Part shown: in pieces, positions 1 to 14,660 of the stretch | How the letters are laid out: every line of letters begins with the position of its first letter | Position numbering within the stretch: position 1 is the first letter of the stretch | Virus record (IMG/VR): IMGVR_UViG_2713896771_000020 | Coordinates: 1-16,979 of that record | Direction: 5' to 3' (one strand) | Length of the DNA: 16,979 nucleotides | Source: a virus | Lineage: Duplodnaviria; Heunggongvirae; Uroviricota; Caudoviricetes | Translations under genes and position numbers: made by a program | Notes under the pieces: generated by a model | Told to the model about the DNA's origin: nothing | The model's database searches: none | What the model saw: only the letters and a program-made list of their open reading frames with translations

Positions 1-309
1 CTAGTACTCAGGAAGATTTTCTAAATTATCCTTAGATGTACCATTGGCTCTAGTTGTAATGTAATCAATGTTGTTAACACGGTCTTTAACCACTTTTTGA
101 CCCTTCTTCCACTTACCGTCATCACCTATGAAAATGGTGTAAAACGTATAACCACTATCGATCTTATTCACTACCCACTGCCGTGTTTCTGATACCCCTC
201 CCCCAACAGTATCCCCCTTATCAACATGCACATACACATGGGTAATGTGAGTGTGCTTGTCGTTATATCGGACTTTAGAAATAAGGTAATCAGCCCATTT
301 ATCAATCAT
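1..309 (-). CDS. Hypothetical cargo protein, possibly DUF3892-like; ATG at 307-309 preferred, alternative TTG start at 361-363
   Basis: Complete ORF with stop at 1-3. GGTGG Shine-Dalgarno-like sequence just upstream of the ATG at 309. Motifs HTHITHV ... SGYTFYT ... NLENLPEY recalled as resembling DUF3892, tentative. About 35% GC by eye, well below the neighbouring terL. Confidence 0.45.
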   Translation of the reverse strand: MIDKWADYLISKVRYNDKHTHITHVYVHVDKGDTVGGGVSETRQWVVNKIDSGYTFYTIFIGDDGKWKKGQKVVKDRVNNIDYITTRANGTSKDNLENLPEY

Positions 310-458
310 ATTCCACCATAAGTTTGAACAGGAAAAGTCCTGCAATACTCTTATAAACAACAAAGCAGCGGCTTCCTACCCCACGATGGTAATATAGTGA
401 TCTAGAGCAATTTATATTTCCGATAACATCGACACAACTCCACATTTACACTCTATTC

Positions 459-2120
459 TCAAATTCCATTAAATAAAGCCAACCGTTCTTTGTGGCTGTC
501 GCTCATATCGAATGCAAATTCCTCATGCTCTGCCTGGAATGTGCCAAACGCCATCAGCGCCGCAACGCTCGGGTCTATCTTGTTGGATGATTTTTTCTTG
601 TTCGGCTTGATATTGGCGTTTGCGTCACTCTGCATCACAACATTACTCATTGACCAGGCCAGCACCGGATCACCACTATGCACAATCACCTTCCGGTTAA
701 CAAAAACCTCGAACGATTTCGCCGCCGGACTGAAACGAAGGTATGTTTGCGGGAACGGCTCCACCTCAAATCCTGCCCCCTGTAGCTGCGTCCTCAGGTG
801 TGTGGCGTTCCATGTATCGAAGCCCACCAGCCTGATATTGAAATTCTCTGCATCCGCCATGATGTCATCACGGATACGGTCATAATCAATGCAGTCACCC
901 GGTGTTGTGCGTATCCAGCCCGCCTTTACCCACTGGCGATAGATGGCGCGGTTTTTATTGGCGGGGTTCTGTAGCTGAAATTCCGGCAGATAGTGACGGG
1001 AAACCAGCATAATCTTTTTACCGACCGGAAAGGCATAGCACACGCTGGAAATATCGCTGGTTGATGATAAGTCCAGCCCCGCGTAGCACTCCTGCCCGTA
1101 TAAATCCGCCTCCGCGAACGTTCCGGCGCACTCCGCCCATGCACCGTTACCCATCCACGGCGTAGCCCCCTGACACCAGATATTGAATCGCTTGGTGAGC
1201 ATTTCCACCCACTGCGACGGAATACCCCGCGCTTTCTGGATGGTTGATGCCAGTTTTTCACGATCGACGGAAACATCGATATTGGGATTCGCCTTTATCC
1301 ACATCGCCGGATCGTCAACCTCGCTTTCATCATCCAGCTCGTAAATCAGCACGAACATGGATTCGTTCACCTCTTCACCATCCAGTATCTGGCAGCAATA
1401 GTCGTAGTGTTGTTTACAGGCTGAAACAACGTTGCTCCCCGATGTGGTGATGGCAAATAACAGCCCCTCCGGACGCGCCCCCATTCCCAGCTCAAGCGCG
1501 GAATAAACCCCGTTGTCAGGATGCAGGTGATATTCATCCACAATGGCAAGACTCGGGTTTGTACCTTCAATGGTTGCCGCTTTTGCTGCCAGTGGCTTTA
1601 ACAGGCTGTTGGTTTTCGGGTGTATCACCTTGTGTGCCTGAATATTTACCCGCTTTCGCAACGGTCGGGATAAAAGGCACATCTGACGCGCATCATCAAA
1701 CACGATCCGCGCCTGATCACGACTCACGGCGGCGGTGTAAATATCCTGCTGCCCGTTTTCCATAACCAGAAACCAGTTAGCCAGGATAGCGGCGACCGTG
1801 GATTTGGCATTTTTTCGCGGCACTTCAATGAATGCGCTGGTGTATTTGCGCCGTCCGGTGGCCTTAACCTTAAAGCCCAGGATGCACGCAAAGGCGAACT
1901 GCTGCCACGGCTCCAGCTCAATGGGGCTACCGCGCATTGCGCCTTTTACGTGCGGACACACCCTGGAAAAGGCAATAAACCGCTCCACGACCTCCGGATC
2001 GAACGTGTAAAGGGGGTTTTCAAGGTCAGAAAAATACCGTTTAACGGCCTGTTTCAGTCGTTTACAGGCCGTAATTTTGCCGTTTTTTACGCCTTCTGCG
2101 TACTCATGCCAGGCGGTCAA
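459..2120 (-). CDS. terL: Terminase large subunit
   Basis: 553-aa ORF with an ATPase P-loop region (EVPRKNAKST) and overall terminase-like length and layout. TTG start at 2118-2120 preceded by GAGGA, overlapping the terS stop by 17 nt. Confidence 0.85.
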   Translation of the reverse strand: MTAWHEYAEGVKNGKITACKRLKQAVKRYFSDLENPLYTFDPEVVERFIAFSRVCPHVKGAMRGSPIELEPWQQFAFACILGFKVKATGRRKYTSAFIEVPRKNAKSTVAAILANWFLVMENGQQDIYTAAVSRDQARIVFDDARQMCLLSRPLRKRVNIQAHKVIHPKTNSLLKPLAAKAATIEGTNPSLAIVDEYHLHPDNGVYSALELGMGARPEGLLFAITTSGSNVVSACKQHYDYCCQILDGEEVNESMFVLIYELDDESEVDDPAMWIKANPNIDVSVDREKLASTIQKARGIPSQWVEMLTKRFNIWCQGATPWMGNGAWAECAGTFAEADLYGQECYAGLDLSSTSDISSVCYAFPVGKKIMLVSRHYLPEFQLQNPANKNRAIYRQWVKAGWIRTTPGDCIDYDRIRDDIMADAENFNIRLVGFDTWNATHLRTQLQGAGFEVEPFPQTYLRFSPAAKSFEVFVNRKVIVHSGDPVLAWSMSNVVMQSDANANIKPNKKKSSNKIDPSVAALMAFGTFQAEHEEFAFDMSDSHKERLALFNGI

Positions 2121-2460
2121 GCTCGTCCTCTTCCTCTGTTTCCGGTGGATTTCTGCGGCGACTTACCGGGTCAAAACCCAGCAAAGAAGCCATTTTGATC
2201 ATTATTCTTTCAGCGTCAGCCTTTGCGCTCAGGGCGGGGTTTCTGCTCTCGCTGCCCTGACTGTTAACAATGCTGAACCCGCGCGTGGCAAGGTCTTCGA
2301 CGGCTTTGCGGTATATGGAGTAGTTAACGCAATACAGCTCCAGATTGCTCCAGTCGGCGGGGGTAAGGTCTTCCCGTCCGGAAAGCTGGCGCGATTTTTC
2401 CTTCCACTGCCTGACCGCGATTTCATCCAGGTAAGCGGGGGCTTTTGGTGGTCTTGCCAT
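2104..2460 (-). CDS. terS: Terminase small subunit (P27-like family)
   Basis: Start at ATG 2458-2460 (MARPPKAPAYLDE...). Size and motifs (LELYCVNYSIYRKA ... NPAL ... FGFDPVSRRR) typical of P27-type small terminases. Sits immediately upstream of and overlapping terL. Confidence 0.8.
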   Translation of the reverse strand: MARPPKAPAYLDEIAVRQWKEKSRQLSGREDLTPADWSNLELYCVNYSIYRKAVEDLATRGFSIVNSQGSESRNPALSAKADAERIMIKMASLLGFDPVSRRRNPPETEEEDELDRLA

Positions 2461-2582
2461 GTTCTTTTTTCGCCCAATTATTTTCAAAAAAATTCCCGTG
2501 CACAAAAATTTGAGGAGGCGTTCGGTGCCCGGCGGGGTCGGGTTTGTCCTGAAAACGCCCCCCACCCCGCCATACAGCCTCA

Positions 2583-2765
2583 TCAGCGATTGCGGAAACA
2601 TTCCATAACCTCGCGGTCACGGTCGGTTAATCGCTTCGCTGTGATGCGTTCTGCGCGTCCTGACGCTTTATCTTTATGCCCTGTTTCCTGTGTCTTCCAT
2701 GCGTCACGCTGCCTTATAAGTCCACGGATAAGGCGGTTTTGTTCCCGCTCATTCATCAGCGTCAT
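2583..2765 (-). CDS. Questionable small basic ORF (60 aa) in the HNH-terS spacer
   Basis: ATG at 2763-2765 and in-frame ORF, but no convincing Shine-Dalgarno and it overlaps the HNH 3' end. It may be non-coding and part of a cos or regulatory region. Confidence 0.2.
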   Translation of the reverse strand: MTLMNEREQNRLIRGLIRQRDAWKTQETGHKDKASGRAERITAKRLTDRDREVMECFRNR

Positions 2766-3189
2766 ACATCCAGTTATTGCGGTTAGCGGCCCGTTCTTCA
2801 TCTTCACGAAATCCACCTGCGGCACGCTTGCTTTTTGTTGCCGGATCAAGCCATTTCGTTTTCTGGTTATGACACGCCTGACACAATGGCTGATGGTTCC
2901 ATTCGGGCCAGAAGAGAACATCATCGCCGCCATCGATGGGGATAATGTGATCCACCACCACGGCGGGCGTATATATCCCCTTCTCAAGGCATCGCACGCA
3001 TAACGGGTTTTTACTCAGATACATGGCGCGGTATTTGTCCCACTGTCTGGAGTACCCACGCGCGCGGCGGTGTCCTCGTCTGGCATCCTCTGCACGCCAT
3101 GCCGCCCGCCTGTGCTCCTCACACTTACCGGACTTAACGCGCCTGTTACAGCCTGGTTCTGTACATCGTCTTAATGGTTGCCACGGCAT
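2749..3189 (-). CDS. HNH endonuclease (terminase-associated)
   Basis: Cys pairs and HNH core: CNRRVKSGKC ... CVRC ... VDHIIP ... WNHQPLCQACHNQKT. Located directly upstream of terS, as in HK97-like cos packaging modules. Confidence 0.9.
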   Translation of the reverse strand: MPWQPLRRCTEPGCNRRVKSGKCEEHRRAAWRAEDARRGHRRARGYSRQWDKYRAMYLSKNPLCVRCLEKGIYTPAVVVDHIIPIDGGDDVLFWPEWNHQPLCQACHNQKTKWLDPATKSKRAAGGFREDEERAANRNNWMYDADE

Positions 3190-3482
3190 CAGTACACCCC
3201 CACATCACGGTAAGCCGTCCAGAGTGCGCCTATCGTCATGGGTACGCGCGTTTTTGCGTTATCCGCGACAATCTGGCGATTTTCATACAGGTGAGCGATA
3301 AACATCATGCAGCCAATCTTTATGGCTGGCGTGAACTCCAGCCCGTCATCAAAGCGCCTGCCTATGTGTATCTGGCACGCCTCAAGCGATGCGGCAATGT
3401 ATCCGCTGATTAACTGGTCTTCATCGTCGCCATCGATGCGGCAATGGAGTTTCACTTCTTCCAGGGTGATAAGTTCTGTCAT
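3189..3482 (-). CDS. Head-tail connector protein (gp6-like)
   Basis: 97-aa protein MTELITLEEVKLHCRIDGDDEDQLI..., matching the characteristic N-terminus of gp6-type connectors. ATGA start/stop overlap with the upstream gene. Confidence 0.7.
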   Translation of the reverse strand: MTELITLEEVKLHCRIDGDDEDQLISGYIAASLEACQIHIGRRFDDGLEFTPAIKIGCMMFIAHLYENRQIVADNAKTRVPMTIGALWTAYRDVGVY

Positions 3483-3817
3483 TTTTCCGCGCCCTCACGA
3501 CAAAGAATTTCAAGGCGTGTCCTGGCGGCATCTGGCAGCGGTTGCCCGATGATATTCAGTACACGCCCCGCCAGCGGCCCCGTATTGACCTTTATCCGAC
3601 TGGTGGCGTTGATGTCCTTCCGGTAGCGTATCCATATCCTTACAGTTCCAGTCGCCAGCTCTGCACCTGATGAAATGGCCTCCTTGCTGCTGATCATGTT
3701 CACGCTTGCCCAGAGTGTGTGACCGTCCAGCCACGTTTCGAGTATTTCACCCGTCATGGCTCTGGTCTGTTTCAGGGTCTGAATCGTTACCCTGTCACGC
3801 AGTCGCCCTATGTTCAT
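3479..3817 (-). CDS. Head closure / head-tail adaptor protein
   Basis: MNIGRLRDRVTIQ ... TLWASV ... IRYRKDI ... pattern of head-closure proteins. ATG at 3815-3817 overlaps the portal stop (ATGA coupling). An upstream in-frame ATG at 3857-3859 is less likely. Confidence 0.65.
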   Translation of the reverse strand: MNIGRLRDRVTIQTLKQTRAMTGEILETWLDGHTLWASVNMISSKEAISSGAELATGTVRIWIRYRKDINATSRIKVNTGPLAGRVLNIIGQPLPDAARTRLEILCREGAEK

Positions 3818-5025
3818 TCCGGTTTTTCTCCCTCGCTGATTTTTACTTCCTGTTTCCATGCCTGGCTGAACTCATCACCACCATCACGCGGTGACAGTCC
3901 TTCACGTTCGCGGGCTTCGTTCGGACACATAACGCCGGATTTGATGCCGCGCTCATAGGTGGCAAAGCGTTCGCCAGGTGTGGCCCGTAACAGGTCCGCG
4001 CTGTCAAACTCCACCTGATACCGGATACCAGGTACAGGCGAGGCCACCAGCAGGGCGTTTTTTATCTGCTGCTCAAAGTTCGCCAGCCACGGGCGCATCG
4101 TCATGGTGAGAAATGCGCGGCTTGCCTCGCTGAAATTGCTGTAGGTGCTGTTGCTGTATTCCTGCAAAAAAATCGGCGAGACGTTGAACATTCTGGCGAT
4201 GTCTTCAATGGTGAAGCGACGGGAGGCCAGCCATTCAGCATCCTGATTACTCATGCCCAGCTGCTGATAGCTCATACCCCCTTCAAGGATGGGCGTTTTT
4301 CCGGCGTTTCTGGCCCCTTTGTAGCGTTCCAGTGCGGCTAATGCCTGTTTGCCCTTCACGCCGTCCAGCCATTCGCCTGACGTGATAACCCCTGCCGCCA
4401 TCATGCCATCACGCATCACGCTCGCGCCGTGGCGTTGTTGGGCCAGCCCAAGCCCCAGCGATTCGCGGCAGATGGTTACAGGTGAGCGCCCCATAAAACC
4501 GTCATCCGTGGAGTAACGAAGGTGGAGAACCTCCCACGGTAAATAGTTGCGGGTGTTTCCGGTGTAAGCGTCAGTGATGCAGTAGCGCCAGTTGTGTTCT
4601 CCTGTCTGCTCCATGTTCACCGACTGCGGCGGGTAAGGATGCAAAGCCGCCGGAAAACCATCACGCCCCCACTGAATCACCGCGTAAGCATTACCGTTTA
4701 ACAGGCAGTGGCGGATCATCATTCGCTTAAACTGGTAGGGAGTCTGCCACGCGTTCGGGCGCTCGTTGAGGATGTGATCGACCGGATGAGAATCAAGCCA
4801 CTCGCGGGCCTCCTTCCCCTTCTCATTGCGTACCAGGTACAGGTAACACGGCATGGTAGCCACCGCCTCAGAGATGACCGTCACGGCGTTCATGACGGCG
4901 GGCAGTGATTCCGCTGTCCCCGATGATACGTACTCACCCGCCCCCGTGTTCGATGTGCCAGCCAGCGCCATAAACTCATCAAGCGTCATGCTGCGCTGCT
5001 CTTTTTTTCTTCTGAAAGGCCACAT
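3814..5025 (-). CDS. Portal protein (HK97 family)
   Basis: 403-aa ORF with size and composition of HK97-type portals. GGGGG Shine-Dalgarno 6 nt upstream of ATG 5023-5025. Flanked by protease and adaptor genes. Confidence 0.85.
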   Translation of the reverse strand: MWPFRRKKEQRSMTLDEFMALAGTSNTGAGEYVSSGTAESLPAVMNAVTVISEAVATMPCYLYLVRNEKGKEAREWLDSHPVDHILNERPNAWQTPYQFKRMMIRHCLLNGNAYAVIQWGRDGFPAALHPYPPQSVNMEQTGEHNWRYCITDAYTGNTRNYLPWEVLHLRYSTDDGFMGRSPVTICRESLGLGLAQQRHGASVMRDGMMAAGVITSGEWLDGVKGKQALAALERYKGARNAGKTPILEGGMSYQQLGMSNQDAEWLASRRFTIEDIARMFNVSPIFLQEYSNSTYSNFSEASRAFLTMTMRPWLANFEQQIKNALLVASPVPGIRYQVEFDSADLLRATPGERFATYERGIKSGVMCPNEAREREGLSPRDGGDEFSQAWKQEVKISEGEKPE

Positions 5026-5026
5026 A

Positions 5027-5599
5027 TCACACCCCCGCTAAATCCGCCCACCAGCGGCGATTATCCGCACGCGGCATTTTTTCGGGGTGCTGCTCGTACA
5101 GGGAGCGGCGGGCCAGCTCCACGCCGGAATCAGGGTAAGCCGGTACGGATGTGACGGTAATTTCGTACAGTTCCGCAACCAGCACGGTGCGCACGCATGG
5201 ATCTGTTGTGGTATCCCATACATCCTTACGGGAACGAAAGCCAAAGCTCATGCCGGATATATCACCACGCTTAACCAGTTCGATAACGTCGCGCCCTGTA
5301 CTGGTATCCGGTGGGGTCAGTTCAAAGCGTAACCCTGTTTCATCCTCTTCCAGTTTCAGCGTGCCGGAACGGGTGCGCCCCAGTAACATACTGTGGTCAT
5401 GCTCATACAGGCCGCGAACGTCATTACCCGCCGCAAGCCATTCAGTAAACGCCCCCCGCTGGAATTTTTCGTAAAACTCACCCCATAACAGTTCTGAAAG
5501 CTTATCCCAGCGAACAACGTAGCCTGTAAGCGTGTTGCTGCCGCTGGTGGTGATTTCCGATGACCGGATTTCCATACTCTTCATAATTTTTTCACCCAT
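5027..5599 (-). CDS. Prohead maturation protease (HK97 family)
   Basis: 190-aa ORF; motif LYEHDHSMLLGRTRSGTL typical of HK97-type prohead proteases. Start among ATGs at 5597, 5582 or 5573 is uncertain. Confidence 0.8.
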   Translation of the reverse strand: MGEKIMKSMEIRSSEITTSGSNTLTGYVVRWDKLSELLWGEFYEKFQRGAFTEWLAAGNDVRGLYEHDHSMLLGRTRSGTLKLEEDETGLRFELTPPDTSTGRDVIELVKRGDISGMSFGFRSRKDVWDTTTDPCVRTVLVAELYEITVTSVPAYPDSGVELARRSLYEQHPEKMPRADNRRWWADLAGV

Positions 5600-5608
5600 A
5601 AAACACTA

Positions 5609-5628
5609 AAGGGGCTTTTAAGCCCCTT
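5609..5628 (-). terminator. Hairpin immediately after the major capsid gene (partial terminator or attenuator)
   Basis: 8-bp stem AAGGGGCT/AGCCCCTT with a 4-nt loop, followed on the minus strand by GUGUUUUAUGG. Lies between the capsid stop (5639) and the protease start. Confidence 0.5.
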
Positions 5629-5638
5629 CTGTATGCTG

Positions 5639-6796
5639 TTAATCGTCGTCCTGTGGCAGTTCCAGAATCTTGATCGCGTTCGAATCCACCACGCCACCGC
5701 CTAAATATTTCTGCGTGAAAATTTTGATGAAGCCCGGCTCTGTGAGGTTGTCCGGTCTGGTGCGAACACCTGTTTCGTGATCAACAATGTAGTAACCGCG
5801 TTTGAAGTCACCCAGGGCAATAACGTTATCAGGCATAAACTCCAGATATTCGACCGGAAGGCCCAGCAACGTATCAGGATCACCCGCCTGTAAACGGTCG
5901 CGCCAGATATAATCACCGTTCGCGTTCTTCACCTTCTGGAGTTTTGCCGCCGTCGTGGAGTTAACCACCCAGACCGCGTTTTTGCGGTATTTTTTACGTA
6001 ATGCAAATTTCAGGTCGATCAGCGGGTCCGCAGATGTCCACGCCAGAGATTCGGAAGGTTTAATTACCTGTAACGTACCAAAATCACGCTCTTTGTCGTT
6101 CTTCTCTGCACGGGGTACGGATAAAAAGCCTTTTGCTTTTTTGTCACCATCGCCCACAACCAGATCGCTTTCTTCGGTTTCCGTGAAGGTGTCGCCAATC
6201 TCACCCGTCAGCCATGAAAGGATGTCCACATCGGAAAAATCCACGATTTCCTGTGTGGTGCGCGGGTACGCATAGACCGGATACAGCTTAATGCTCACCT
6301 CGTTAATCTGCGGGGTGCTGGTCTGTTCGCGTGCCTTACCCTCTTCACCGTGGTTAACGGTCGCACCGCCAGCGGAAACAAGCTGCTTAAACTCGTTGCT
6401 GCTGATTTTCTTCACGGTACAGATGCGGCGCATGGTGGATTCATCCGCCAGCATTCGCATGATTTCGGTGTTCAGTTCAGGGATAACGGTATAACCACCA
6501 TCAGCGGGAACGCCTGTACTTAATGCGCGGGTTTCACCTGTCAGAATGTAGTTGCGGAGTTCTGCGGGGTCAGTGGTCTGACTGCTTTTACCTGGCTTGC
6601 TGCGCTCTTCGTCTGCAATGGCTTCAAGGCGGGAAATGTCTTTATCGAGGGATTCAGCTTTAGCGCGTAATTCGTCAAATGTTGCGCCCTCAGCATCGTT
6701 AAGACTGCGGTTTTCTTTTTCCGCGTTCTCCAGCATGTCGCGCATCTGATTTTTAATGGCGGTTTTCTGCTGGCGTAATTCGATTATTCTCGGCAT
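5639..6796 (-). CDS. Major capsid protein, HK97 fold, with N-terminal scaffold-like (delta) domain
   Basis: 385-aa ORF. N-terminal ~100 aa is charged and coiled-coil-like (ELRQQKTAIKNQMRDMLENAEKENRSL...), followed by a capsid-like body. Adjacent prohead protease. Confidence 0.88.
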   Translation of the reverse strand: MPRIIELRQQKTAIKNQMRDMLENAEKENRSLNDAEGATFDELRAKAESLDKDISRLEAIADEERSKPGKSSQTTDPAELRNYILTGETRALSTGVPADGGYTVIPELNTEIMRMLADESTMRRICTVKKISSNEFKQLVSAGGATVNHGEEGKAREQTSTPQINEVSIKLYPVYAYPRTTQEIVDFSDVDILSWLTGEIGDTFTETEESDLVVGDGDKKAKGFLSVPRAEKNDKERDFGTLQVIKPSESLAWTSADPLIDLKFALRKKYRKNAVWVVNSTTAAKLQKVKNANGDYIWRDRLQAGDPDTLLGLPVEYLEFMPDNVIALGDFKRGYYIVDHETGVRTRPDNLTEPGFIKIFTQKYLGGGVVDSNAIKILELPQDDD

Positions 6797-7050
6797 AAAA
6801 AAAGTCCTGGGGTTAAGTAAGGAACTCCAGGACGCGGCAAAAACTCAACCGTTTTTCATAAGGAAATCAGCAATCGCACCGATCGTTTTCCCGCCTGGTA
6901 ATGAATATTGGCGAGAACATTAACAGGCGGAAAAGTGGCCCCAGCGTCCTGGCACCACGGGCGAGAATAATCATGATTCAGTTCGGGTAAAATATGCCGA
7001 TCCTGTCAGTGAACAACGTGGAACAACCGCGAACAAATAATTTACAAAAA
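6797..7050 (-). promoter_or_regulatory. Leader and promoter region of the capsid/packaging operon
   Basis: 254-bp non-coding gap. Three 10-bp-phased TTGTTC repeats (7011-7036) lie upstream of a candidate -10 TATTTT (~6989-6994). Hairpin 6804-6833 followed by T7 abuts the capsid ATG. Confidence 0.5.
7011..7036 (-). repeat. Three direct repeats GAACAA (TTGTTC on the minus strand) at exact 10-bp spacing
   Basis: Plus strand reads GAACAAcgtgGAACAAccgcGAACAA at 7011-7016, 7021-7026 and 7031-7036. Confidence 0.9.
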
Positions 7051-7055
7051 ATGAC

Positions 7056-7083
7056 AAAAAGCCGGATTGCTCCGGCTGTATGC
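7056..7083 (-). terminator. Rho-independent terminator
   Basis: Stem GCCGGA/TCCGGC (7061-7066 and 7071-7076) with loop TTGC, followed on the minus strand by TTTTTGTCATTTTTT. Near-identical copy at 7408-7434. Confidence 0.75.
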
Positions 7084-7087
7084 GTGC

Positions 7088-7407: not shown

Positions 7408-7434
7408 AAAAAAAGCCGGATTTCTCCGGCTGTG
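7408..7434 (-). terminator. Rho-independent terminator (second copy of the same element)
   Basis: Stem GCCGGA/TCCGGC (7415-7420 and 7425-7430) with loop TTTC, followed on the minus strand by T7. Immediately after the stop of the 7438-7710 gene. Confidence 0.8.
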
Positions 7435-7437
7435 TGA

Positions 7438-7710: not shown

Positions 7711-7720
7711 CGTCACCCCC

Positions 7721-8131
7721 TCAGAACGGAATATCATCACCGTAGGGGTCATCGTCTCCCGCTGGTGGCTGATTACCCTGTGTGCCTGTGGTTTTGCGTC
7801 TGTTCCCGCCAGGACGTGCCGCACGGGCACTGATTACGCTGTCTGCAATAACCTGATACCCCTGCCGTGTTTCCCCGTTCTGTCCGGTCCACTGGCTTAC
7901 CTGCATCGTGCCGGATACGCTGGCAACATCGCCTTTTTGATGTTTAGCCAGGAAATCGGCCTGTTTGCCAAATGCGATAACCGATAACCATAACGTCGCC
8001 TGTCCGTCATGTGCCTGGCTGCATGGCAACGATACCGCCATACGCGCCAGAGTCATCGGTGTGCCCTTGCTGCTCTGTTTTACCAGCGGGTCGTCCACCA
8101 GGCGCCCGTAAGCTGCAATTTGTGCTGTCAT
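7721..8131 (-). CDS. ssb: Single-stranded DNA-binding protein with acidic C-terminal tip
   Basis: 136-aa ORF with SSB-like core (TLWLSVIAFGKQADFLAKHQKGDVASVSGTMQVSQW), Gly-rich linker and C-terminal DDDPYGDDIPF, the conserved SSB tail. GAGGTGG Shine-Dalgarno. Confidence 0.8.
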   Translation of the reverse strand: MTAQIAAYGRLVDDPLVKQSSKGTPMTLARMAVSLPCSQAHDGQATLWLSVIAFGKQADFLAKHQKGDVASVSGTMQVSQWTGQNGETRQGYQVIADSVISARAARPGGNRRKTTGTQGNQPPAGDDDPYGDDIPF

Positions 8132-8140
8132 ATTGCCACC

Positions 8141-8446
8141 TCAGTGAAGCGATCCGGCGTTGTTCTTTTTCATCTCTTCCATCATTTTTTCAGTGAGCAT
8201 TACGCACTGAAAACCCATGTTTTTGATGTCTACGGGTTTCATGCCTTTGTCAGTGGATATCACAGGCAGAATATCCTGATACACATCGCGGTCAGGGTAA
8301 CTAAGCACACAAAGCGCCCATGATGCCACGGGTGAGGATCCTTCGTCTGTTTCAACCCACCAGCCTGGTGTAGCTGCGCTTATTTGCAGAATCGTGATCA
8401 GTCCGTTGTGCTTGTAAAGTTTTTCACCAAATTTTGGTTCGCTCAT
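8141..8446 (-). CDS. Hypothetical 101-aa protein
   Basis: ATG 8444-8446 with GGAGAGGTGG Shine-Dalgarno. ATGA overlap with the upstream gene. No recognisable motif. Confidence 0.5.
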   Translation of the reverse strand: MSEPKFGEKLYKHNGLITILQISAATPGWWVETDEGSSPVASWALCVLSYPDRDVYQDILPVISTDKGMKPVDIKNMGFQCVMLTEKMMEEMKKNNAGSLH

Positions 8447-8694
8447 GATTCCACCTCTCCGGTTTTAACGTTGATGGTTGTTACCTGTTCCGCTTCGGCA
8501 ATCTCCCGTTCTGTCAGCGTGGCAAAGTTTGCCGCCGCCGTGGTCATGAATGCGCTTATCAGGTCGGGATGTTCCTTCGCGTATCCTTCCCGCGTGTGGC
8601 GGTCTATCGTTCTGATTGCCACCTTTAAGGTGTGCTCAGTCATGTCTAACGCTTTATATTTTGGCTCTGTTCTGTCTCTGCGTTTTTGGGTCAT
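8443..8694 (-). CDS. Hypothetical 83-aa protein (start uncertain: 8694, 8724 or 8643)
   Basis: In-frame ORF translationally coupled to the downstream gene. Its upstream region overlaps the iteron array. Confidence 0.4.
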   Translation of the reverse strand: MTQKRRDRTEPKYKALDMTEHTLKVAIRTIDRHTREGYAKEHPDLISAFMTTAAANFATLTEREIAEAEQVTTINVKTGEVES

Positions 8695-8703
8695 TTCTCG
8701 CAA

Positions 8704-8897
8704 CCTCTCACTTTTTCGCCTCACTTTTTCAAGCGTCTCACTTCGTCGCAGCTGGGATTTTCGGTTTTTCTATGTGTGTGTTTCATAAGTATTTTTTTAC
8801 CCCTCACTTTTGAGGATGTATACAGGTCGAAAAGTGAGGGAGAGCAGGCTAATTTTGGCCCTCTTTCTATCCACCTCGCTTTTGCTCCTCACTTTTA
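8704..8897. repeat. Iteron array, putative replication origin of the island
   Basis: CTCACTTTT-type repeats at 8707, 8720, 8737 (degenerate), 8803, 8874 (degenerate) and 8888, plus one inverted copy AAAAGTGAG at 8830-8838. Adjacent AT-rich tract 8783-8800. Lies immediately 3' of the replicase gene. Confidence 0.65.
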
Positions 8898-10295
8898 TAG
8901 CGGCGCTACATCATCCCCATCGATACGAATAACCCCATCTTTTTCCAGCTTGTACAGCCAGCGCCGGAAGTTTTTCATTTCATACCCCAGCTTTTTCATG
9001 TCATCACGTAACAGCGGGATCGTGCACTTGTCGCCGTTCTGTGTGCGTGAACGGATGCACCCCCATAAAGCGGTATGGTTTTCCGTCTTGTTCCCGGCCT
9101 CCTCGATGCGCTCCAGTTCAACAGGAGGGCGCGGATCATCCACCACCACCAGCGACGTGATTAATTCACCGTCAGCGTCGGTAAAAAGCTCCACCACGCG
9201 TAAGTCATATGCGGCTTCTTTGAGTTCCTCCGCGTCCTTCATTTTGGTGCATGAGATAACCAGCGCTTCGCTTCCTGCGTCCTCCCTGCGTATCCGGTAT
9301 TCAGCATCCAGCGAAGCACGAAATGCACTGGAACCGCGCGCGCCTTTCGTCTCATCCTTGCCGGAATGGTGAACCACCAGCACCGTGGCCCCTGTGCGTC
9401 GTTTCAGTTCGTCACAACCACGGATAAACGCCCCCATATCACGGGAATCATTTTCATCATTCCCACCAAAGCAACGCGCCAGCGTATCCAGAATAATCAT
9501 GCGAACAGGTTTACCCGTTTCCCGCTCCACCTGACGGGCAGCGATAACCATTTCATCAACATCAAGCGGGGCAGCCGGAAAGATGGGGCGGTTTACCAGA
9601 TACAGATTTTTCACCTGCTCATCGTGCACAACCTCCCAGGCTTTTACACGACGCGGAACACCTATACCGCCTTCACCAACCACATAGAGAACCGCACCAT
9701 GCGCAACCCTGCGGCCTCCCCACTGGCGACCAGTGGCAACATGGCACGCCCACGATCCGGCAAGGAATGATTTATAGGACCCGCTAGCCCCGTATATGCT
9801 GCATAGCGATACCGCCGGAATAATCCCCTTAACCACGTAATCCAGTTGCGTGTCGTATCCGGTAGATCCAACGCTCATCGGTAGCGTGGTTTTTCGCTGG
9901 TGGTTTTTTTCTTCCGCCGGCTCTTTCCCACGCACCCGTTCCAGGTATTCGCGCCAGTTCTCCCGCATATGGCTGTGCATCCCTTCGGGGTAATAATTCG
10001 CATCAGTTACACCCGCCGCCGCCAGCTTGTGCGCAATGGCATTAATATTTGATGGCCTGATGTGGCCTGCCTTGTACAGCCGGACACAATAGCGCCCCTC
10101 GTCGATGATTCTCAGGTCTGCCAGTTCATCCAGTTGATCATCAGCCAGCACAACGGGAGGCACATTATCGCCAGCCAGTCGCCCGTCCTGTTCCTGCCAC
10201 TGTTTCGCATGTGCCCAGGCATCACTACCCGCAAAAATAATGACTTCGGTCATCTTGTCGTAAGGCTGTTTTTTTAAGTTCGGTGCGCTTTTCAT
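8895..10295 (-). CDS. Primase/replicase-type replication initiator with RecA-like (RepA/AAA_25-type) ATPase domain
   Basis: 466-aa ORF. P-loop-like YGASGSYKS, Walker B MIILDTL, and VVHHSGKD motif typical of RepA-like helicase loaders. ATGA coupling to the upstream gene. Confidence 0.75.
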   Translation of the reverse strand: MKSAPNLKKQPYDKMTEVIIFAGSDAWAHAKQWQEQDGRLAGDNVPPVVLADDQLDELADLRIIDEGRYCVRLYKAGHIRPSNINAIAHKLAAAGVTDANYYPEGMHSHMRENWREYLERVRGKEPAEEKNHQRKTTLPMSVGSTGYDTQLDYVVKGIIPAVSLCSIYGASGSYKSFLAGSWACHVATGRQWGGRRVAHGAVLYVVGEGGIGVPRRVKAWEVVHDEQVKNLYLVNRPIFPAAPLDVDEMVIAARQVERETGKPVRMIILDTLARCFGGNDENDSRDMGAFIRGCDELKRRTGATVLVVHHSGKDETKGARGSSAFRASLDAEYRIRREDAGSEALVISCTKMKDAEELKEAAYDLRVVELFTDADGELITSLVVVDDPRPPVELERIEEAGNKTENHTALWGCIRSRTQNGDKCTIPLLRDDMKKLGYEMKNFRRWLYKLEKDGVIRIDGDDVAPL

Positions 10296-10591
10296 TTCTT
10301 GCCCCTGAATACGTTAAGCATCTTTTTTATTTCCTGAATATTGGCGCGTGCTTTCTCCCTGCTGGTTGGTTTACTGCGGGGCGCTGCCTGTACCAGAGAA
10401 AAATCACGCCGGAACTGATAAACAGGCATCACGCAGTCATATTCGTAGCCTTCACGGCGGTAGGTAATGCGTCGCTCTTCTACACCTTTAATCGTTACGG
10501 TGCCGCCGTACTGGTCGCGGTAAATATCGCCGCGCGTAAATTTAGGGTGAGTGTTGCCACTGGCAGTTAAGCCAGAATATTTAAGTTTCAT
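10292..10591 (-). CDS. Hypothetical 99-aa protein
   Basis: ATG 10589-10591; intact ORF in the same operon directly upstream of the replicase. Confidence 0.5.
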   Translation of the reverse strand: MKLKYSGLTASGNTHPKFTRGDIYRDQYGGTVTIKGVEERRITYRREGYEYDCVMPVYQFRRDFSLVQAAPRSKPTSREKARANIQEIKKMLNVFRGKK

Positions 10592-10596
10592 TATTT

Positions 10597-10830
10597 TTAT
10601 TCTCCGGTGTGCTGTTCTTTATATCTGTCGTGCAATATATCTATTTCTTGCAGTTCCATTATTACAGGATCAAGAAGCGTTATTAATGCCGTGGCAATTC
10701 TTGATTTTTGTTTGTCGCGTTCATTGTCGCCAAGTGTTTCAAGCCATATGCGCAATATTTCCAGCATGTTTTCACTGTGAGAAAGTGCAAGAAATGCGCG
10801 GTCTATTGTTTGGTGGTAAATATCACGCAT
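10597..10830 (-). CDS. Hypothetical 77-aa protein, AT-rich gene
   Basis: ATG 10828-10830 with GAGGA Shine-Dalgarno. Local GC visibly lower than flanking genes. Confidence 0.5.
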   Translation of the reverse strand: MRDIYHQTIDRAFLALSHSENMLEILRIWLETLGDNERDKQKSRIATALITLLDPVIMELQEIDILHDRYKEQHTGE

Positions 10831-11272
10831 GGCTTACATCCTCAGGAAATTTTCTTCTATAACGCGCCTCTGCCACATATTCCGCATAATCGGCGGCGAT
10901 ATTCAGTACATCAAGCCCCGTTGATTTATATTCTCTCGTGGAAAGTAAGAAAAAAGCCGCTCTAATAAGTTCTGGCATTGACGAAAGCGCATCAGCCGCA
11001 TCATCAGGAACGCCGGAAAATTCCTGTTTCAGGGAATTAAAACGATCATCACGCATAACCCCCCCCCCATTTTCACAATCAGCAACAAGAATATTTTTAG
11101 CGTCATTCAGCGACCGCGTTGCGGTGTATCGGATACATTCCAGGGCGAATAGTGTGTATTCTTCCCTTTCTTCCTTTTGTGCAAGCTCTGCTGTGCATTC
11201 AATATCAATAAGCGCGTGCATCAGCGTAGTGAGTGCGGCGGCGGCTGCGTCCGGTGTGGTTTTATTGCACAT
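10823..11272 (-). CDS. Hypothetical 149-aa protein containing a G10 homopolymer tract
   Basis: ATG 11270-11272 with GGAGGGG Shine-Dalgarno. The coding strand carries GGGGGGGGGG (plus-strand C10 at 11059-11068) encoding ENGGGV. Confidence 0.5.
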   Translation of the reverse strand: MCNKTTPDAAAAALTTLMHALIDIECTAELAQKEEREEYTLFALECIRYTATRSLNDAKNILVADCENGGGVMRDDRFNSLKQEFSGVPDDAADALSSMPELIRAAFFLLSTREYKSTGLDVLNIAADYAEYVAEARYRRKFPEDVSHA

Positions 11273-11492
11273 GTACCCCTCCGCATTTTTTTTCGTTAGA
11301 AATAAGCGTTCTTCTTTCCTGTTCATCGATCAGGAATACGCAGACCTCACCGCTAAGGCGTTTAAGTAAGCCGATGATTGCCCCTGATTCGCTGTCGGTC
11401 ATCATGCCTGGGTAATCCTCTGCCAGTGCGCAAATAACTTCGATTTGGTGGGCGCGTTCTACTGCCTGTTGTAGTGTGATTTCCTGGCTCAT
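11262..11492 (-). CDS. Hypothetical 76-aa acidic protein
   Basis: ATG 11490-11492 overlapping the stop of the upstream gene (ATGA). No recognisable motif. Confidence 0.5.
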   Translation of the reverse strand: MSQEITLQQAVERAHQIEVICALAEDYPGMMTDSESGAIIGLLKRLSGEVCVFLIDEQERRTLISNEKKCGGVHVQ

Positions 11493-11689
11493 AAGCCTAC
11501 CCCCTGACGAATACGGGCAGCGAATACCATCACGCAGCCAGCCGGGGATTGCAGGCGTGCTTCCTGTTCGCTGGTGGCCTCAATGGTAATCACGCGCGGT
11601 TGTGCAGTGCTCAGGGCGATAAAACGCCAAATGTATTTATTCAGGTTGTGCGAGTCCCGCCCTTGCGGGTGTGTGGTATGATTTCTCAT
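11489..11689 (-). CDS. Hypothetical 66-aa protein, first gene of the leftward early operon
   Basis: ATG 11687-11689 with GAGGT Shine-Dalgarno (MRNHTTHPQGRDSHNLNKYIWRF...). The ORF-track 381-aa extension upstream is non-coding promoter sequence. Confidence 0.5.
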   Translation of the reverse strand: MRNHTTHPQGRDSHNLNKYIWRFIALSTAQPRVITIEATSEQEARLQSPAGCVMVFAARIRQGVGL

Positions 11690-11885
11690 AGCTACCTCGA
11701 TACTCTCGTTATCGTTGGTGGTTAGAAGCCCCGTTACTGCTCCTACAGTGCGGGGTTTCGTCGTTTCTGCACCTTGCATTAACAAGGTGTAAGTAACTTT
11801 ATTTATAGGTGGCTTACATGTCAATGCTTTTATGTAAGACTTTTTATGTGTATATTGTCTTACACTTTCATTGAGAGGATTACAG
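11690..11885. promoter_or_regulatory. Divergent promoter/operator switch region
   Basis: Minus-strand promoter: perfect -35 TTGACA (11819-11824), 17-nt spacer, -10 TAAAGT (11796-11801). Plus-strand candidate -10 TATATT (11851-11856). Inverted repeats CTTACAT/ATGTAAG (11814-11820 and 11833-11839), TGTAAGAC/GTCTTACA (11834-11841 and 11858-11865), CACCTTG-N6-CAAGGTG (11770-11789). Confidence 0.6.
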
Positions 11886-12191
11886 ATGGCTACAGGTTCA
11901 AAAAACGCAAAATCACAATCACTGACAGCTCGGATCCCGCATGATGTTATTGAAGGCATGGAATCCGTAAAACTGGACGGTGAAAGCAACGCCGGATTCA
12001 TAGTAACCGCCATGCGCGGTGAAATCGCCCGCCGCCAGGCAGAAGGAAGCGGAGAAAACCTCCTGATTTCTTCGCTCAATGCACTGGCGCAGGTGGAAAA
12101 ACTCGGAATCAAAGCCGCCGAGGAGATCGGGCAGCTCGTCACTGTCGCACGTGAAGAACTCCAGCGCCGCAAGACTAAAGAACCAGAGTAA
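11886..12191 (+). CDS. Small ribbon-helix-helix-like DNA-binding protein, candidate island repressor
   Basis: ATG 11886 with GAGAGGA Shine-Dalgarno. N-terminal beta-strand/helix pattern SLTARIPHDVIEGMESVKLDGESNAGFIVTAMRGEIARRQ resembles Arc/CopG-type folds. Divergent from the early operon. Confidence 0.5.
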   Translation: MATGSKNAKSQSLTARIPHDVIEGMESVKLDGESNAGFIVTAMRGEIARRQAEGSGENLLISSLNALAQVEKLGIKAAEEIGQLVTVAREELQRRKTKEPE

Positions 12192-12248
12192 TCACCATCA
12201 GCGCCGTGGTGTAAGGTATTACGGCGCATTGCTATGCAGGACAACACA

Positions 12249-12422
12249 ATGACCGATAAAGAATTGACCAAAACATTATCACCGGCACGGAAAAGACGGC
12301 GCAGAAAGATAGAGCATGAATCAGAAAGATTCGCGCCATGTGCTTTTGCCCTTGAGCAATTCCTTAAAGAGTACAGGGAAAAGCGCTCATTGCAGGTATG
12401 GCAACGAACTGAACCAGACTGA
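12249..12422 (+). CDS. Hypothetical 57-aa basic protein
   Basis: ATG 12249 with AGGA Shine-Dalgarno 7 nt upstream (MTDKELTKTLSPARKRRRRK...). Second gene of the short plus-strand operon. Confidence 0.4.
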   Translation: MTDKELTKTLSPARKRRRRKIEHESERFAPCAFALEQFLKEYREKRSLQVWQRTEPD

Positions 12423-12517
12423 TTGCATTGCCCACCAGCCTGATAGCGGCTATCATCCCCGTGCTTATGTTTGGGATCACATACACAAACGGCGCAGCGG
12501 GTTATCTGTTCAGAAAG

Positions 12518-12545
12518 GCGGCTCCATTTCGGGGCCGCTTTTTTT
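12518..12545 (+). terminator. Rho-independent terminator of the plus-strand regulator operon
   Basis: 8-bp stem GCGGCTCC/GGGGCCGC with one G-U pair and loop ATTTC, followed by T7. A second AU-rich hairpin CTGAAAAAC/GTTTTTCAG lies at 12550-12579. Confidence 0.7.
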
Positions 12546-12691
12546 ATACCTGAAAAACCCCAATTTTGTTGTTTTTCAGTTTCACCAGGGCGAACGAATC
12601 CCCGCCCACGTTCTGGCGTATATTCAATCTTCATGGTTATGGCTCTGTGTTCAGATGATTGATGTGTGGCGGCTGCGTGCCGCCAGCGTGA

Positions 12692-12880
12692 TTAATGAAC
12701 TGCCTTGCAGCTATCCTTCCAGGCCAGAACCTCGGATAAAGACCAGCCAACGGAACGACCGCCAAGTTTACGACGTGATGGGAATTGTCCGGCCTTTTCC
12801 AGGCGGTAGCGGCATGAGCGGCTAAGGCCTGTTAGCTTTTCGCATTCTTTTTCACGTATAAACCGATCAGTGCTTAACAC
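12692..12880 (-). CDS. alpA: AlpA-family (excisionase-like) transcriptional regulator
   Basis: 62-aa protein; core LTGLSRSCRYRLEKAGQFPSRRKLGGRSVGWSLSEVLAWKDS matches the AlpA/Xis-like winged-helix signature. GTG start with GGGGG Shine-Dalgarno. Immediately downstream of int in the same orientation. Confidence 0.85.
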   Translation of the reverse strand: MLSTDRFIREKECEKLTGLSRSCRYRLEKAGQFPSRRKLGGRSVGWSLSEVLAWKDSCKAVH

Positions 12881-13163
12881 TATTGCCCCCTTTCGTTTCT
12901 TAAAGAGTTATTTCGTGTTCTATTGCGTTGGGATGTGTCTGATTGTGTCAGGATGATTCAGAGTTGGCAAATGTTGAGGCCGTATGGTTTACAGAAAGAG
13001 GAATAATCAGGATAAAATCATTTAAATTCATGTTAATACAAAGGCATAAAATATTGTTTCATGCCTTTTTTCTCGCTATTTAAAGAGTGATTCGCTAGTG
13101 TATAAAAAACCAGTAACACATTAAAAATCAGCTACTTATAAATCTGTACACTTTTTCGCCTCT

Positions 13164-13208
13164 TGTTCGTAGTTGTTCCGCATTGTTGCTCATTGTTGCA
13201 CGTTGTAT
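13164..13208 (+). repeat. Four to five direct repeats TTGTT(C/G) at 10-bp spacing
   Basis: TTGTTC at 13164 and 13174, TTGTTG at 13184 and 13194, degenerate TTGTAT at 13203. Same motif and phasing as the arrays at 7011-7036 and 14539-14574. Confidence 0.85.
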
Positions 13209-13221
13209 CTGTTCGCATATC

Positions 13222-13237
13222 CAGTATGCGCATACTG
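13222..13237. promoter_or_regulatory. Perfect 16-bp palindrome CAGTATGCGCATACTG
   Basis: Exact dyad symmetry directly adjacent to the repeat array, in the int-alpA intergenic region. No flanking U-run, so a protein site is more likely than a terminator. Confidence 0.5.
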
Positions 13238-13254
13238 AAAAAATACGAAAAAAA

Positions 13255-14484
13255 TTATTTTCTTCTGGCTACTGGTAGCGTGGTTACGTTTTCATGTGTT
13301 CCCGCCAGTATCCCTAACCGCTCCATCCACATATCCAGCACATTGCGTTTAGCATCCAGATAACGGGAATGATTATAAACTCGCTGCATTCCTGGCATCT
13401 GGTGGCCTGTAAGCTGCTCCACGACATGCGGATCAACGCCTAAATCGTTCAGCATGGTTGTAAAGGTGCGCCGGATGTCATGCAGTGACCAGTGAGGATG
13501 ATTAAGCCTCCTGTGCGCTAATCTTCCATACTGCGATACGCTGGCCTCCTGTTTCACTTCCCCCAGCAATAAGCCCGTGTGCCTGTTCTGCTCCACCAGC
13601 TGCGTGACGAACGGCAGGATCGCTTCCGGTATGGGCCGGAATATTGCGACCTTCGTTTTGCTGTGCTCCTTCGGAACGGTCCATAGCATTTCCGTAAAAT
13701 CCCACTCCCCGATCTCCGATAGCCTCAGTTCTACCGTCCTGGCTCCGAAGACAATCAGGAGGCGGATTAACGCGACGTAGTAAGGGGAAAATATTTTTTT
13801 GTCCAGTGCCTGCAATAATTCGCCAAGTTCTTTGTTACTTAAGACACGTTCGCTTATATCCGGTTTTTTCCCAACGTCCGCCACGTTCAGATCGTCCAGA
13901 ACGTTGCTGATTGCATAGCGCCGCCTACGGCAGAACTTAAGCGCCTGTTTGCACGCCTGTAGCACGAATCCGGCAGTAACAGGCGTTCGCTTTGCCACCT
14001 GGTCAAAACAGGCCAGCCAGTGCCGTAGCTCGCATTTATCCAGCGGCATAGCACCAATCTGCTGTATTACGTGATTATTAAGTCGCCTTTTCAGGGCGAT
14101 ATAATCCACGCGGTTTTCCTTTACGTAATACTCAAGCCAGTAGGTGAGCGCATCGCCAACCGTTACGGGCTTTAACGCTTCCTGTACGGTGTAATTCATC
14201 TCATGACGTGGATTTTTCCCCTCAGCCAGCCATGTGCGACACTGTGCGGCTTTTTCCCTGGCTGCTTTCAGGCTCAGATCAGGATAACTTCCCAGCTTAA
14301 TGCGTTCGGGTCGTGTCTCCCTTCCCGTTCCGGCCCTGTATGTGAAATACCAGGTCAATTTCCCTGATGTTAAATATTTCACGCTCAGGTTTCCGCCATC
14401 ACTATAAAACGTGTTTTTCTCCGCTGGCTTACCATGAAGTTTCCTTAGCAAGGTATCGCTCAGTTTGTTCATTGCTCTGCTCAC
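13255..14484 (-). CDS. int: Tyrosine site-specific integrase (P4-like family)
   Basis: 409-aa ORF; C-terminal catalytic region with HDIRRTF ... LTGHQ ... RVYNHSRY (R, H-x-x-R, Y). GTG start 14482-14484 with AGAGGGGG Shine-Dalgarno; alternative ATG at 14472. Adjacent to the insertion junction. Confidence 0.9.
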   Translation of the reverse strand: MSRAMNKLSDTLLRKLHGKPAEKNTFYSDGGNLSVKYLTSGKLTWYFTYRAGTGRETRPERIKLGSYPDLSLKAAREKAAQCRTWLAEGKNPRHEMNYTVQEALKPVTVGDALTYWLEYYVKENRVDYIALKRRLNNHVIQQIGAMPLDKCELRHWLACFDQVAKRTPVTAGFVLQACKQALKFCRRRRYAISNVLDDLNVADVGKKPDISERVLSNKELGELLQALDKKIFSPYYVALIRLLIVFGARTVELRLSEIGEWDFTEMLWTVPKEHSKTKVAIFRPIPEAILPFVTQLVEQNRHTGLLLGEVKQEASVSQYGRLAHRRLNHPHWSLHDIRRTFTTMLNDLGVDPHVVEQLTGHQMPGMQRVYNHSRYLDAKRNVLDMWMERLGILAGTHENVTTLPVARRK

Positions 14485-14507
14485 GTTTTACCCCCTCTTT
14501 ACGAAAA

Positions 14508-14531
14508 AGTGACTACACCAGTGACTACACC
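14508..14531. repeat. Perfect tandem 12-bp direct repeat AGTGACTACACC x2 in the int promoter region
   Basis: Copies at 14508-14519 and 14520-14531, about 25 bp upstream of the int start codon. Confidence 0.9.
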
Positions 14532-14538
14532 GATCGTT

Positions 14539-14574
14539 GCACAAAGGGCTACAACGTGAAACAAGCTGGAACAA
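14539..14574 (-). repeat. Four 10-bp-phased TTGT repeats upstream of int
   Basis: Plus strand has ACAA at 14541, 14551, 14561 and 14571. Minus strand reads TTGTTC, TTGTTT, TTGTAG, TTGTGC at exact 10-bp intervals. Confidence 0.8.
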
Positions 14575-14660
14575 GGAAAATCACAAATCTGTTGATAATC
14601 AAAAACATAATGCACAGCCTGAAACATTATGAAACAGCAAAAAACACTAAATGATAAAAT

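Follow-up and report, generated by a model that had tools for sequence, protein, structure and literature searches.

A tqsA-integrated element in an IMG/VR record as a probable EcCIEDL933-type capsid-forming satellite of Escherichia coli

The virus record IMGVR_UViG_2713896771_000020 was analysed over a window of 16,979 nucleotides, the term window meaning this whole stretch of DNA. Positions 1-14668 very probably make up the greater part of an EcCIEDL933-type capsid-forming phage-inducible chromosomal island (cf-PICI), integrated by its own tyrosine integrase at about codon 44 of the Escherichia coli gene tqsA, and we put the probability of this reading at about 0.92. EcCIEDL933 (= O-island 51 / CP-933C / Sakai Sp7) comes from E. 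coli O157:H7 EDL933 and is the cf-PICI prototype (Alqurainy et al., bioRxiv 10.1101/2022.09.08.507074; capsid PDB 9GYI), and the EDL933 element has also been described as O-island 51 / CP-933C (PMC3378721). The original prediction, made from the sequence without database searches, had called the region a cf-PICI; this was right, and the call is now backed by close allelism with the prototype. The nucleotide identity to EcCIEDL933 was 95.7% over window positions 492-8142 (TerL through SSB, 7.65 kb) and 92.2% over 12194-14660 (alpA, int), the gene order was identical from int to terL, and nine packaging proteins (major capsid, protease, portal, head closure, connector, HNH, the 60-amino-acid (aa) open reading frame (ORF) product, TerS, and TerL) were 88-100% identical.

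These alignments indicate that the element is already known, namely a mosaic allele, at a frequently used integration site, of a published satellite that has been dissected by experiment. It carries little weight as a discovery, the family, its mechanism, the capsid structure, and its prevalence all having been published. The family had been described as sparsely characterised, which does not hold: all the packaging genes have been studied genetically, and a capsid structure and tail-swapping experiments are available, as is a catalogue of 969 elements, which includes 13% of Enterobacteriaceae genomes. The island is useful as a clean annotated example in which the terminase, portal, and capsid calls of genome pipelines denote a satellite and not a prophage remnant.

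Head and packaging genes and the class of the element

Gene identities were obtained from Pfam, NCBIfam, and PHROGs profile searches over the ORFs of the window. The profile identities were unambiguous, and the gene content and coordinates were as first proposed. Nearly all credible genes of 1-14668 lay on the minus strand, a YlcI/YnfO-family ORF being the sole convincing plus-strand gene of the island. The assigned genes covered 85% of positions 1-14659, and the biggest unassigned gap was 500 bp. The head and packaging module and its flanking genes comprised the following features, in the order of transcription.

7088-7312, minus strand: 74-aa ORF (phrog_1957; 100% identical to the EcCIEDL933 copy)
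5639-6796, minus strand: HK97-fold major capsid protein, 385 aa (Pfam Phage_capsid, 1.5e-61)
5027-5599, minus strand: HK97-family prohead protease (Pfam Peptidase_S78, 4e-48; 98.9% to EcCIEDL933)
3814-5025, minus strand: portal protein (Pfam Phage_portal, 4e-90; 99.0% to EcCIEDL933)
3479-3817, minus strand: head closure protein (Hc1, SPP1 gp16-like; Pfam Phage_HCP, 2.1e-22; TIGR01563; phrog_25; 95.5% to EcCIEDL933)
3189-3482, minus strand: head-tail connector/adaptor (gp6-like, Ad1; Pfam Phage_connect_1, 5.4e-12; phrog_40; 98.9% to EcCIEDL933)
2749-3189, minus strand: HNH endonuclease, packaging cofactor (Pfam HNH, 1.2e-8; phrog_144, 1e-44; 99.3% to EcCIEDL933)
2583-2765, minus strand: 60-aa ORF between HNH and TerS (phrog_3173; 100% to the EcCIEDL933 ORF)
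2461-2582, minus strand: presumed cos site, a conserved intergenic region (position HNH-cos-TerS as in HK97-like phages)
2104-2460, minus strand: TerS, P27 family, 118 aa (Pfam Terminase_4, 4.2e-23; TIGR01558; 100% to tcmA_3, 88.0% to EcCIEDL933)
459-2120, minus strand: TerL, 553 aa (Pfam TerL_ATPase, 4e-26; TerL_nuclease, 1e-52; 93.1% to EcCIEDL933, 99.8% to tcmA_3)
1-309, minus strand: DUF3892 cargo gene, 102 aa, the last island gene (Pfam DUF3892, 1.7e-9)

The major capsid protein ties the island most directly to the prototype. It matched 382 of the 385 residues of PDB 9GYI, the cryo-EM structure of the EcCIEDL933 capsid, and of the EDL933 protein (99.2%), and its three differences from 9GYI were exactly the EDL933 residues. 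The window protein kept the maturation motif S93-x-G-x-x-A-D99, the residues D257, K290, D295, E319, and R345, and the loop 227-248; in the EcCIEDL933 capsid, mutating D257, K290, D295, E319, or R345 abolishes or lowers transfer. Every core gene was full length and without stops in comparison with functional EcCIEDL933, as had been claimed, and the translational coupling noted earlier was seen as start/stop overlaps at TerS/TerL, 60-aa ORF/HNH, HNH/connector, connector/head closure, and head closure/portal. The 60-aa ORF probably corresponds to EcCIEDL933 'gene 1792', counting from gene 1786 as the capsid gene, and cos is presumed to lie at 2461-2582, between the HNH end of the module and terS. 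Upstream of the capsid operon, two terminator-like hairpins of almost the same sequence (AGCCGGAGnAATCCGGCT and then a T-run) stood on either side of the 74-aa ORF, at 7431-7414 and 7077-7060 on the minus strand, and a third strong hairpin stood 3' of the capsid gene at 5629-5608. This arrangement may be a sign of regulated read-through into the packaging module.

The SatelliteFinder cfPICI model (PMC10085698) has 11 core components (integrase, regulator, primase-replicase, capsid, protease, portal, head-tail adaptor, head-tail connector, HNH, TerS, and TerL) and forbids tails and holins. All 11 components were present at full length, neither forbidden class was found in the window, and the island is a 'Type A' cfPICI element. 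The gene features that mark a cf-PICI were found: an integrase, AlpA next to int, and a replicase with a presumed origin; an own capsid with protease, portal with head closure and connector, and HNH with TerS and TerL. Of the bounds of a discrete ~15-kb element, the window contained the right core of the attachment (att) site; both cores were present around the 98.5%-identical 15.3-kb island of JB2 (NZ_CP182203.1).

The earlier statement that the element is neither a P4-like satellite nor a degraded prophage was borne out by its own capsid and terminase set, the lack of tail and lysis modules, and the intact genes. A P4-like or classical capsid-redirecting PICI relying on a helper capsid would account for the P4-like integrase, AlpA, Icd-like, and replication genes that are held in common, and for a RepA identical to that of classical PICIs. 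Such a satellite is hardly credible here and was ruled out by gene content, the island encoding its own major capsid, protease, portal, connectors, and TerL, whereas portal, adaptor, and connector are forbidden in the SatelliteFinder PICI model (PMC10085698). The Phage_cap_E, HDPD, and Nu1-like packaging genes of classical PICIs of the EcCICFT073 type (loci L016-L023) were absent, and no match to Sid, Psu, or Delta was obtained in the Pfam and PHROGs scans of all ORFs.

An HK97-like prophage that had lost its tail and lysis modules by deletion would also be left with phage-derived head and packaging genes, and the EDL933 homologue OI-51/CP-933C was indeed first annotated as a cryptic prophage (PMC3378721). 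This origin is nevertheless highly improbable for the window island. As had been stated before, no ORF of 1-14668 matched tail, baseplate, fibre, holin, or endolysin families in the Pfam and PHROGs scans, with no gap above 500 bp, and no CI/Cro-type immunity gene was found in these scans. The relatives were bounded at about 15 kb, the JB2 element exactly so, by a 9-bp att duplication at 15.3 kb, and the compact architecture recurred at several att sites, always ending in terL and one cargo gene. In addition, the left half was identical to classical PICIs, the genes were all intact, and experiments have shown the prototype to be an autonomous satellite. Apart from one 106-kb Klebsiella record, true tailed phages reached at most about 40% capsid identity; the other three of the four closer 'phage' records were one 3.8-kb fragment and two 15-16.5-kb elements of cf-PICI-like appearance.

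As a separate observation, the four closest 'phage' relatives by capsid included two records of cf-PICI size, LR881103.1 'Escherichia phage vB_KppS-Ant' (16,548 bp, 'induced prophage'; capsid identity 65%) and OR544139.1 'Pasteurella phage Pmp8' (15,321 bp; 58%). Both may be cf-PICIs deposited as phages.

Insertion in tqsA and relatives of the island

The integrase side of the island and the adjoining host genes were represented by four features.

14508-14531: tandem 12-nucleotide repeat AGTGACTACACC x2 (100% tandem repeat), probable arm-type integrase site
14660-14668: att core TGCTGTTAT, 9 bp, marking the junction on the integrase side, within tqsA near codon 44; both ends of the JB2 island carry it
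14660-15566, plus strand: 3' part of tqsA (88% of the gene), a disrupted host gene outside the island (Pfam AI-2E_transport, 2.6e-70, profile positions 40-326 only)
15591-16979: pntB, complete, right of tqsA

The right boundary had been placed at 14660, and this proved exact: the alignment of K-12 tqsA (window 14660-15718, 98.9% identity) begins there, at the 9-bp duplicated core. A tRNA scan of the window found none, so the att site is not a tRNA. A 25-nucleotide identical copy of the AGTGACTACACC tandem stood at the opposite end of the JB2 island, and the ACTACACC-type repeats at both EcCIEDL933 ends resemble it; the tandem is a putative, indeed probable, arm-type binding site of the integrase. 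On the other side, the window opens exactly on the DUF3892 stop codon (position 1), and it closes exactly on the pntB start codon (position 16979). The window was apparently cut on gene boundaries, and therefore the left att falls outside it.

The closest relative was the tqsA island of JB2, with the same att site and 98.5% nucleotide identity over window 492-16979. Its HNH-to-Int proteins were 98-100% identical to those of the window island, while TerS (88%) and TerL (92.8%) differed and the last gene was unrelated, because the window island has a recombinant end. The JB2 island measured 15.3 kb, was flanked by two tqsA fragments and both 9-bp cores, with mdtJ and mdtI beyond the far side, and contained no tail genes; it stopped at the 5' tqsA fragment about 0.75 kb past its last gene. 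The original prediction had named tail or lysis genes just to the left of position 1 as the finding that would make this an ordinary prophage. None was seen in any relative examined, JB2 and six other contexts all ending at most 0.9 kb past the last gene.

The site had been considered unusual, but among 5,426 complete E. coli genomes there were 172 that contained no less than 80% of the window, the tqsA/pntB flank included, and a related PICI of strain ED1a between ydgD and ydgG (= tqsA) was reported in 2011 (PMC3378721). Among the papers searched, none named tqsA together with PICI. In the same genome set, at least 80% of the HNH-to-capsid module was present in 403 genomes (7.4%).

The insertion deprives tqsA of its first ~44 codons. 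An in-frame stop at 14655-14657 is followed in the tqsA frame by GTG at 14682 and ATG at 14691. An N-terminally truncated TqsA is conceivable, yet a non-functional product is more likely, and carriers are probably mutants of the autoinducer-2 (AI-2) exporter.

EcCIEDL933 was mapped in the EDL933 chromosome between roxA and phoQ, with the 10-bp core GGACATATTT at both ends and a length of 15.47 kb versus the published 15.4 kb, similar to the 15.3 kb of the JB2 island at tqsA. Apart from the features given above, the two islands have in common the ACTACACC-type arm repeats. They differ in att site (GGACATATTT between roxA and phoQ, against TGCTGTTAT in tqsA), in the replicase (a 710-aa DUF927 primase in EcCIEDL933 and a 466-aa RepA/AAA_25 helicase in the window, with only the N-terminal ~122 aa related), in the small ORFs between alpA and rep, in the TerS/TerL allele (88%, 93%), and in the terminal cargo gene, which is a 93-aa hypothetical in EcCIEDL933 and DUF3892 in the window island.

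The integrases of the two islands (window 13255-14484; locus L004 of EcCIEDL933, 830-2059) were 90.7% identical despite the different att cores (window 14660-14668; L004 649/16110). Of the 37 differences, 21 fell within the first 100 residues and 9 in residues 119-200. This pair could be used to map the determinants of att-site choice.

Classical E. coli PICIs of the EcCICFT073 / EcCIED1a type resembled the window island in the int-alpA-DUF4222-RepA-SSB-PerC half, which is of like architecture with a 100% identical RepA, and the ED1a element at ydgD/ydgG occupies the locus of the window island. They differ in carrying capsid-redirecting genes (Phage_cap_E, HDPD, Nu1-like TerS/Rpp) in place of the head and terminase set, and they need helper capsids. 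The exact 466-aa window RepA was found in classical PICIs at roxA/phoQ (loci L016-L023, e.g., CP148349.1 1189556-1210956) and in 10,148 index blocks. The comparison indicates that the replication half is common to classical PICIs and cf-PICIs; the int-proximal half is known to be common to the two groups (PMC10085698), and the distribution of the window RepA agrees with this. The island thus illustrates modular exchange, one half being identical in classical PICIs and the terminase end swapped among cf-PICI lineages.

The terminase end and its exchange

A sliding comparison revealed a sharp switch at about 2490-2520. To its left, the DUF3892, TerL, and TerS genes were 96-100% identical to those of the clpS/cspD cf-PICIs of E. 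coli tcmA_3, TUM9757, and B1W1, and to its right the window was 100% identical to the JB2 tqsA island. Taken by region, the terS-terL-DUF3892 stretch of the clpS/cspD elements matched window 1 to ~2490 at 99-100%, and the proteins of the island body (about 2520-14668) matched those of JB2 at 100%. These identities indicate that the island is a recombinant whose terS-terL-DUF3892 end (1 to ~2490) came from another cf-PICI lineage and was joined in the conserved presumed cos region. The HNH-terS intergenic region (2461-2582) had a mean column identity of 93% across four islands. The clpS/cspD elements have the overall cf-PICI architecture and the terS-terL-DUF3892 end in common with the window island but belong to another head lineage (major capsid 74%, protease 62%, connector 56%), have no separately annotated head-closure gene, and carry a different integrase (75%) at another att site.

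Several points weigh against reading the region as a working EcCIEDL933-type island. The evidence is that of sequence, from which the function of the window island is inferred. Some 0.6-0.9 kb of island sequence and the left att lie beyond the window, and therefore its completeness and exact size are taken from relatives. TerS, which shares 88% identity with its EcCIEDL933 counterpart and has another C-terminus, now stands beside a cos region of JB2/EDL933 type on its upstream side, and the recombinant terminase and cos region are assumed to be compatible because that region is 93% conserved. None of the 5,426 complete genomes showed the exact mosaic, the best match being 98.5% over 97% of the window, and the public assemblies with the exact TerL or RepA protein contained only relatives and no contig with the exact mosaic at tqsA.

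On these grounds the copy might be a cf-PICI by descent that is now immobile, its terS-terL mismatched to cos or its unseen left end (att, arm sites) damaged, so that neither excision nor packaging occurs. The crossover inside the presumed cos region, the position of the left att, and the absence of the exact mosaic from the complete-genome set would all fit such a loss. We consider it unlikely, since all core genes were full length and without stops in comparison with functional EcCIEDL933, the cos region was 93% conserved between donor and recipient lineages, and the same TerL allele occurred with EcCIEDL933-type head genes in another assembly (L009/L010), which suggests that the combination propagates. 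The EcCIEDL933-type island, integrated and intact in its core genes, is the reading we retain.

The exact TerL protein, mostly with DUF3892 next to it as the last gene, was found in cf-PICIs beside proVWX/nrd, beside yifB/ilvY, and at clpS/cspD, and it was paired with either of two head-gene lineages. In six contexts other than JB2, DUF3892 was the last island gene before chromosomal genes. It is possible, although we hold it rather doubtful, that terS-terL-DUF3892 is a cassette traded by recombination in the cos region among cf-PICIs of different head lineages and att sites (tqsA, clpS/cspD, proV-nrd, yifB/ilvY), with DUF3892 as an accessory factor that is carried along with the terminase and acts, for example, on packaging or on helper phages. 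DUF3892 had no PADLOC match and no relative with a solved structure, and a single-sequence AlphaFold model was unusable (mean pLDDT 40.9).

As a side observation, the 102-aa DUF3892 gene ended cf-PICIs at no fewer than four chromosomal sites (window 1-309; L002 18001-18309; L009 8587-8895; L010, L011, L013, L014, and L015), together with one terS-terL allele in two head-gene lineages.

Replication, regulation, and the expected life cycle

The integrase, regulation, and replication half of the island contained the following features.

13255-14484, minus strand: tyrosine integrase, 409 aa (Pfam Arm-DNA-bind_3, 1.5e-18; Phage_integrase, 2.9e-16; 90.7% to EcCIEDL933 Int, 100% to JB2 Int)
12692-12880, minus strand: AlpA regulator, 62 aa (Pfam Phage_AlpA, 5e-18; 98.4% to EcCIEDL933 AlpA)
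11886-12191, plus strand: divergent YlcI/YnfO-family ORF (phrog_6522, 5.5e-56; YlcI/YnfO annotation in JB2; without a Pfam match)
11489-11689, minus strand: Icd-like protein, 66 aa (NCBIfam phage_ICD_like, 2.4e-19)
10597-11492, minus strand: three small ORFs of 76, 167, and 77 aa (phrog_1478, phrog_2512, phrog_2196, all 'unknown function'; no PADLOC match)
10292-10591, minus strand: DUF4222 protein, 99 aa, RgdR homologue (Pfam DUF4222, 3e-24; 90.9% to the EcCIEDL933 copy)
8895-10295, minus strand: replicase, RepA-family helicase, 466 aa, AAA_25 (Pfam AAA_25, 2.4e-43; phrog_2850, 5.7e-267)
8706-8894, minus strand: iteron cluster, presumed replication origin (AAGTGAGR matches directly downstream of the replicase)
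8141-8694, minus strand: two small ORFs of 83 and 101 aa (phrog_1231, phrog_27268)
7721-8131, minus strand: SSB, single-stranded DNA-binding protein (Pfam SSB, 6.5e-16)
7438-7710, minus strand: PerC-family regulator, PchE-like (Pfam PerC, 8.4e-44; 91% to the EcCIEDL933 copy)

The iterons proposed next to the replicase were real and significantly clustered. All six AAGTGAGR matches of the whole window fell within 8706-8894, where 0.79 were expected by chance, and none of 200 shuffles reached six; the cluster is a putative origin. The replication module is a departure from EcCIEDL933 (RepA helicase and iterons versus DUF927 primase), though the exact RepA is very common.

The life cycle of EcCIEDL933 has been worked out experimentally. 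Helper phages HK106 and HK446 induce the island via alpA, and an alpA mutation abolishes induction and transfer. Every gene of the packaging module is needed for transfer of the island and none by the phage; mutants in phage capsid and terminase still transfer the island, whereas those in the phage tail (major tail, tape measure) fail to do so. The capsids are small (T=4, 47.5 nm), and the adaptor/connector pair sets which phage tails fit, EcCIEDL933 taking HK106 tails and not HK022 tails. The steps below were thus determined in EcCIEDL933 and are carried over to the window island from 88-100% protein identity.

An HNH-dependent cos-type helper phage (HK106/HK446-like) would activate alpA, upon which the island would excise and then replicate from its own origin via the RepA helicase and the iterons at 8706-8894. 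The 9-gene module would build small T=4 HK97-fold capsids from the major capsid, protease, and portal, and the island's own TerS, TerL, and HNH would package its DNA from the cos between HNH and terS. The island's connector and head-closure proteins would close the head, so that the phage would supply only tails and lysis, the connector pair deciding which tails fit. The window island probably runs such an EcCIEDL933-like cycle with HK106-type tails; a like cycle is expected here because the proteins concerned are 95-100% identical.

The repressor-like switch proposed earlier was not supported: no CI/Cro-type protein was found, only the YlcI/YnfO-family ORF (11886-12191, plus strand) and the Icd-like ORF (11489-11689, minus strand). 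A 381-aa ORF at 11489-12634 on the minus strand is most likely a mechanical read-through, in which the Icd-like gene is extended via the antisense frame of the YlcI/YnfO gene. Annotations of the alpA-icd region differ among relatives, JB2 having a 66-aa Icd-like gene together with a pseudogene, EDL933 a 247-aa hypothetical, and others ORFs of 314-343 aa.

Searches for further elements gave little. LexA-box matches with one mismatch numbered 8 versus 4.9 expected, which was not significant, and the stretch upstream of the capsid gene had only one weak match, at 7076; a sigma-70 promoter scan returned fewer sites than shuffles and was uninformative; and Rfam at gathering thresholds identified no RNA family in the window. 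Ten accessory ORFs, DUF3892 among them, gave no defence-system match with PADLOC.

The DUF4222 protein is a full-length homologue of RgdR, with the RGD motif at residues 20-22. In enterohaemorrhagic E. coli (EHEC), RgdR has been found experimentally to raise the expression of the enterocyte effacement locus (LEE) and type III secretion, and the Pch (PerC-homologue) proteins are reported to be positive LEE regulators (PMC3378721). The PerC-family gene of the window corresponds to PchE. The island disrupts the AI-2 exporter gene tqsA and carries regulators of the RgdR and PerC families, known in EHEC to influence LEE expression.

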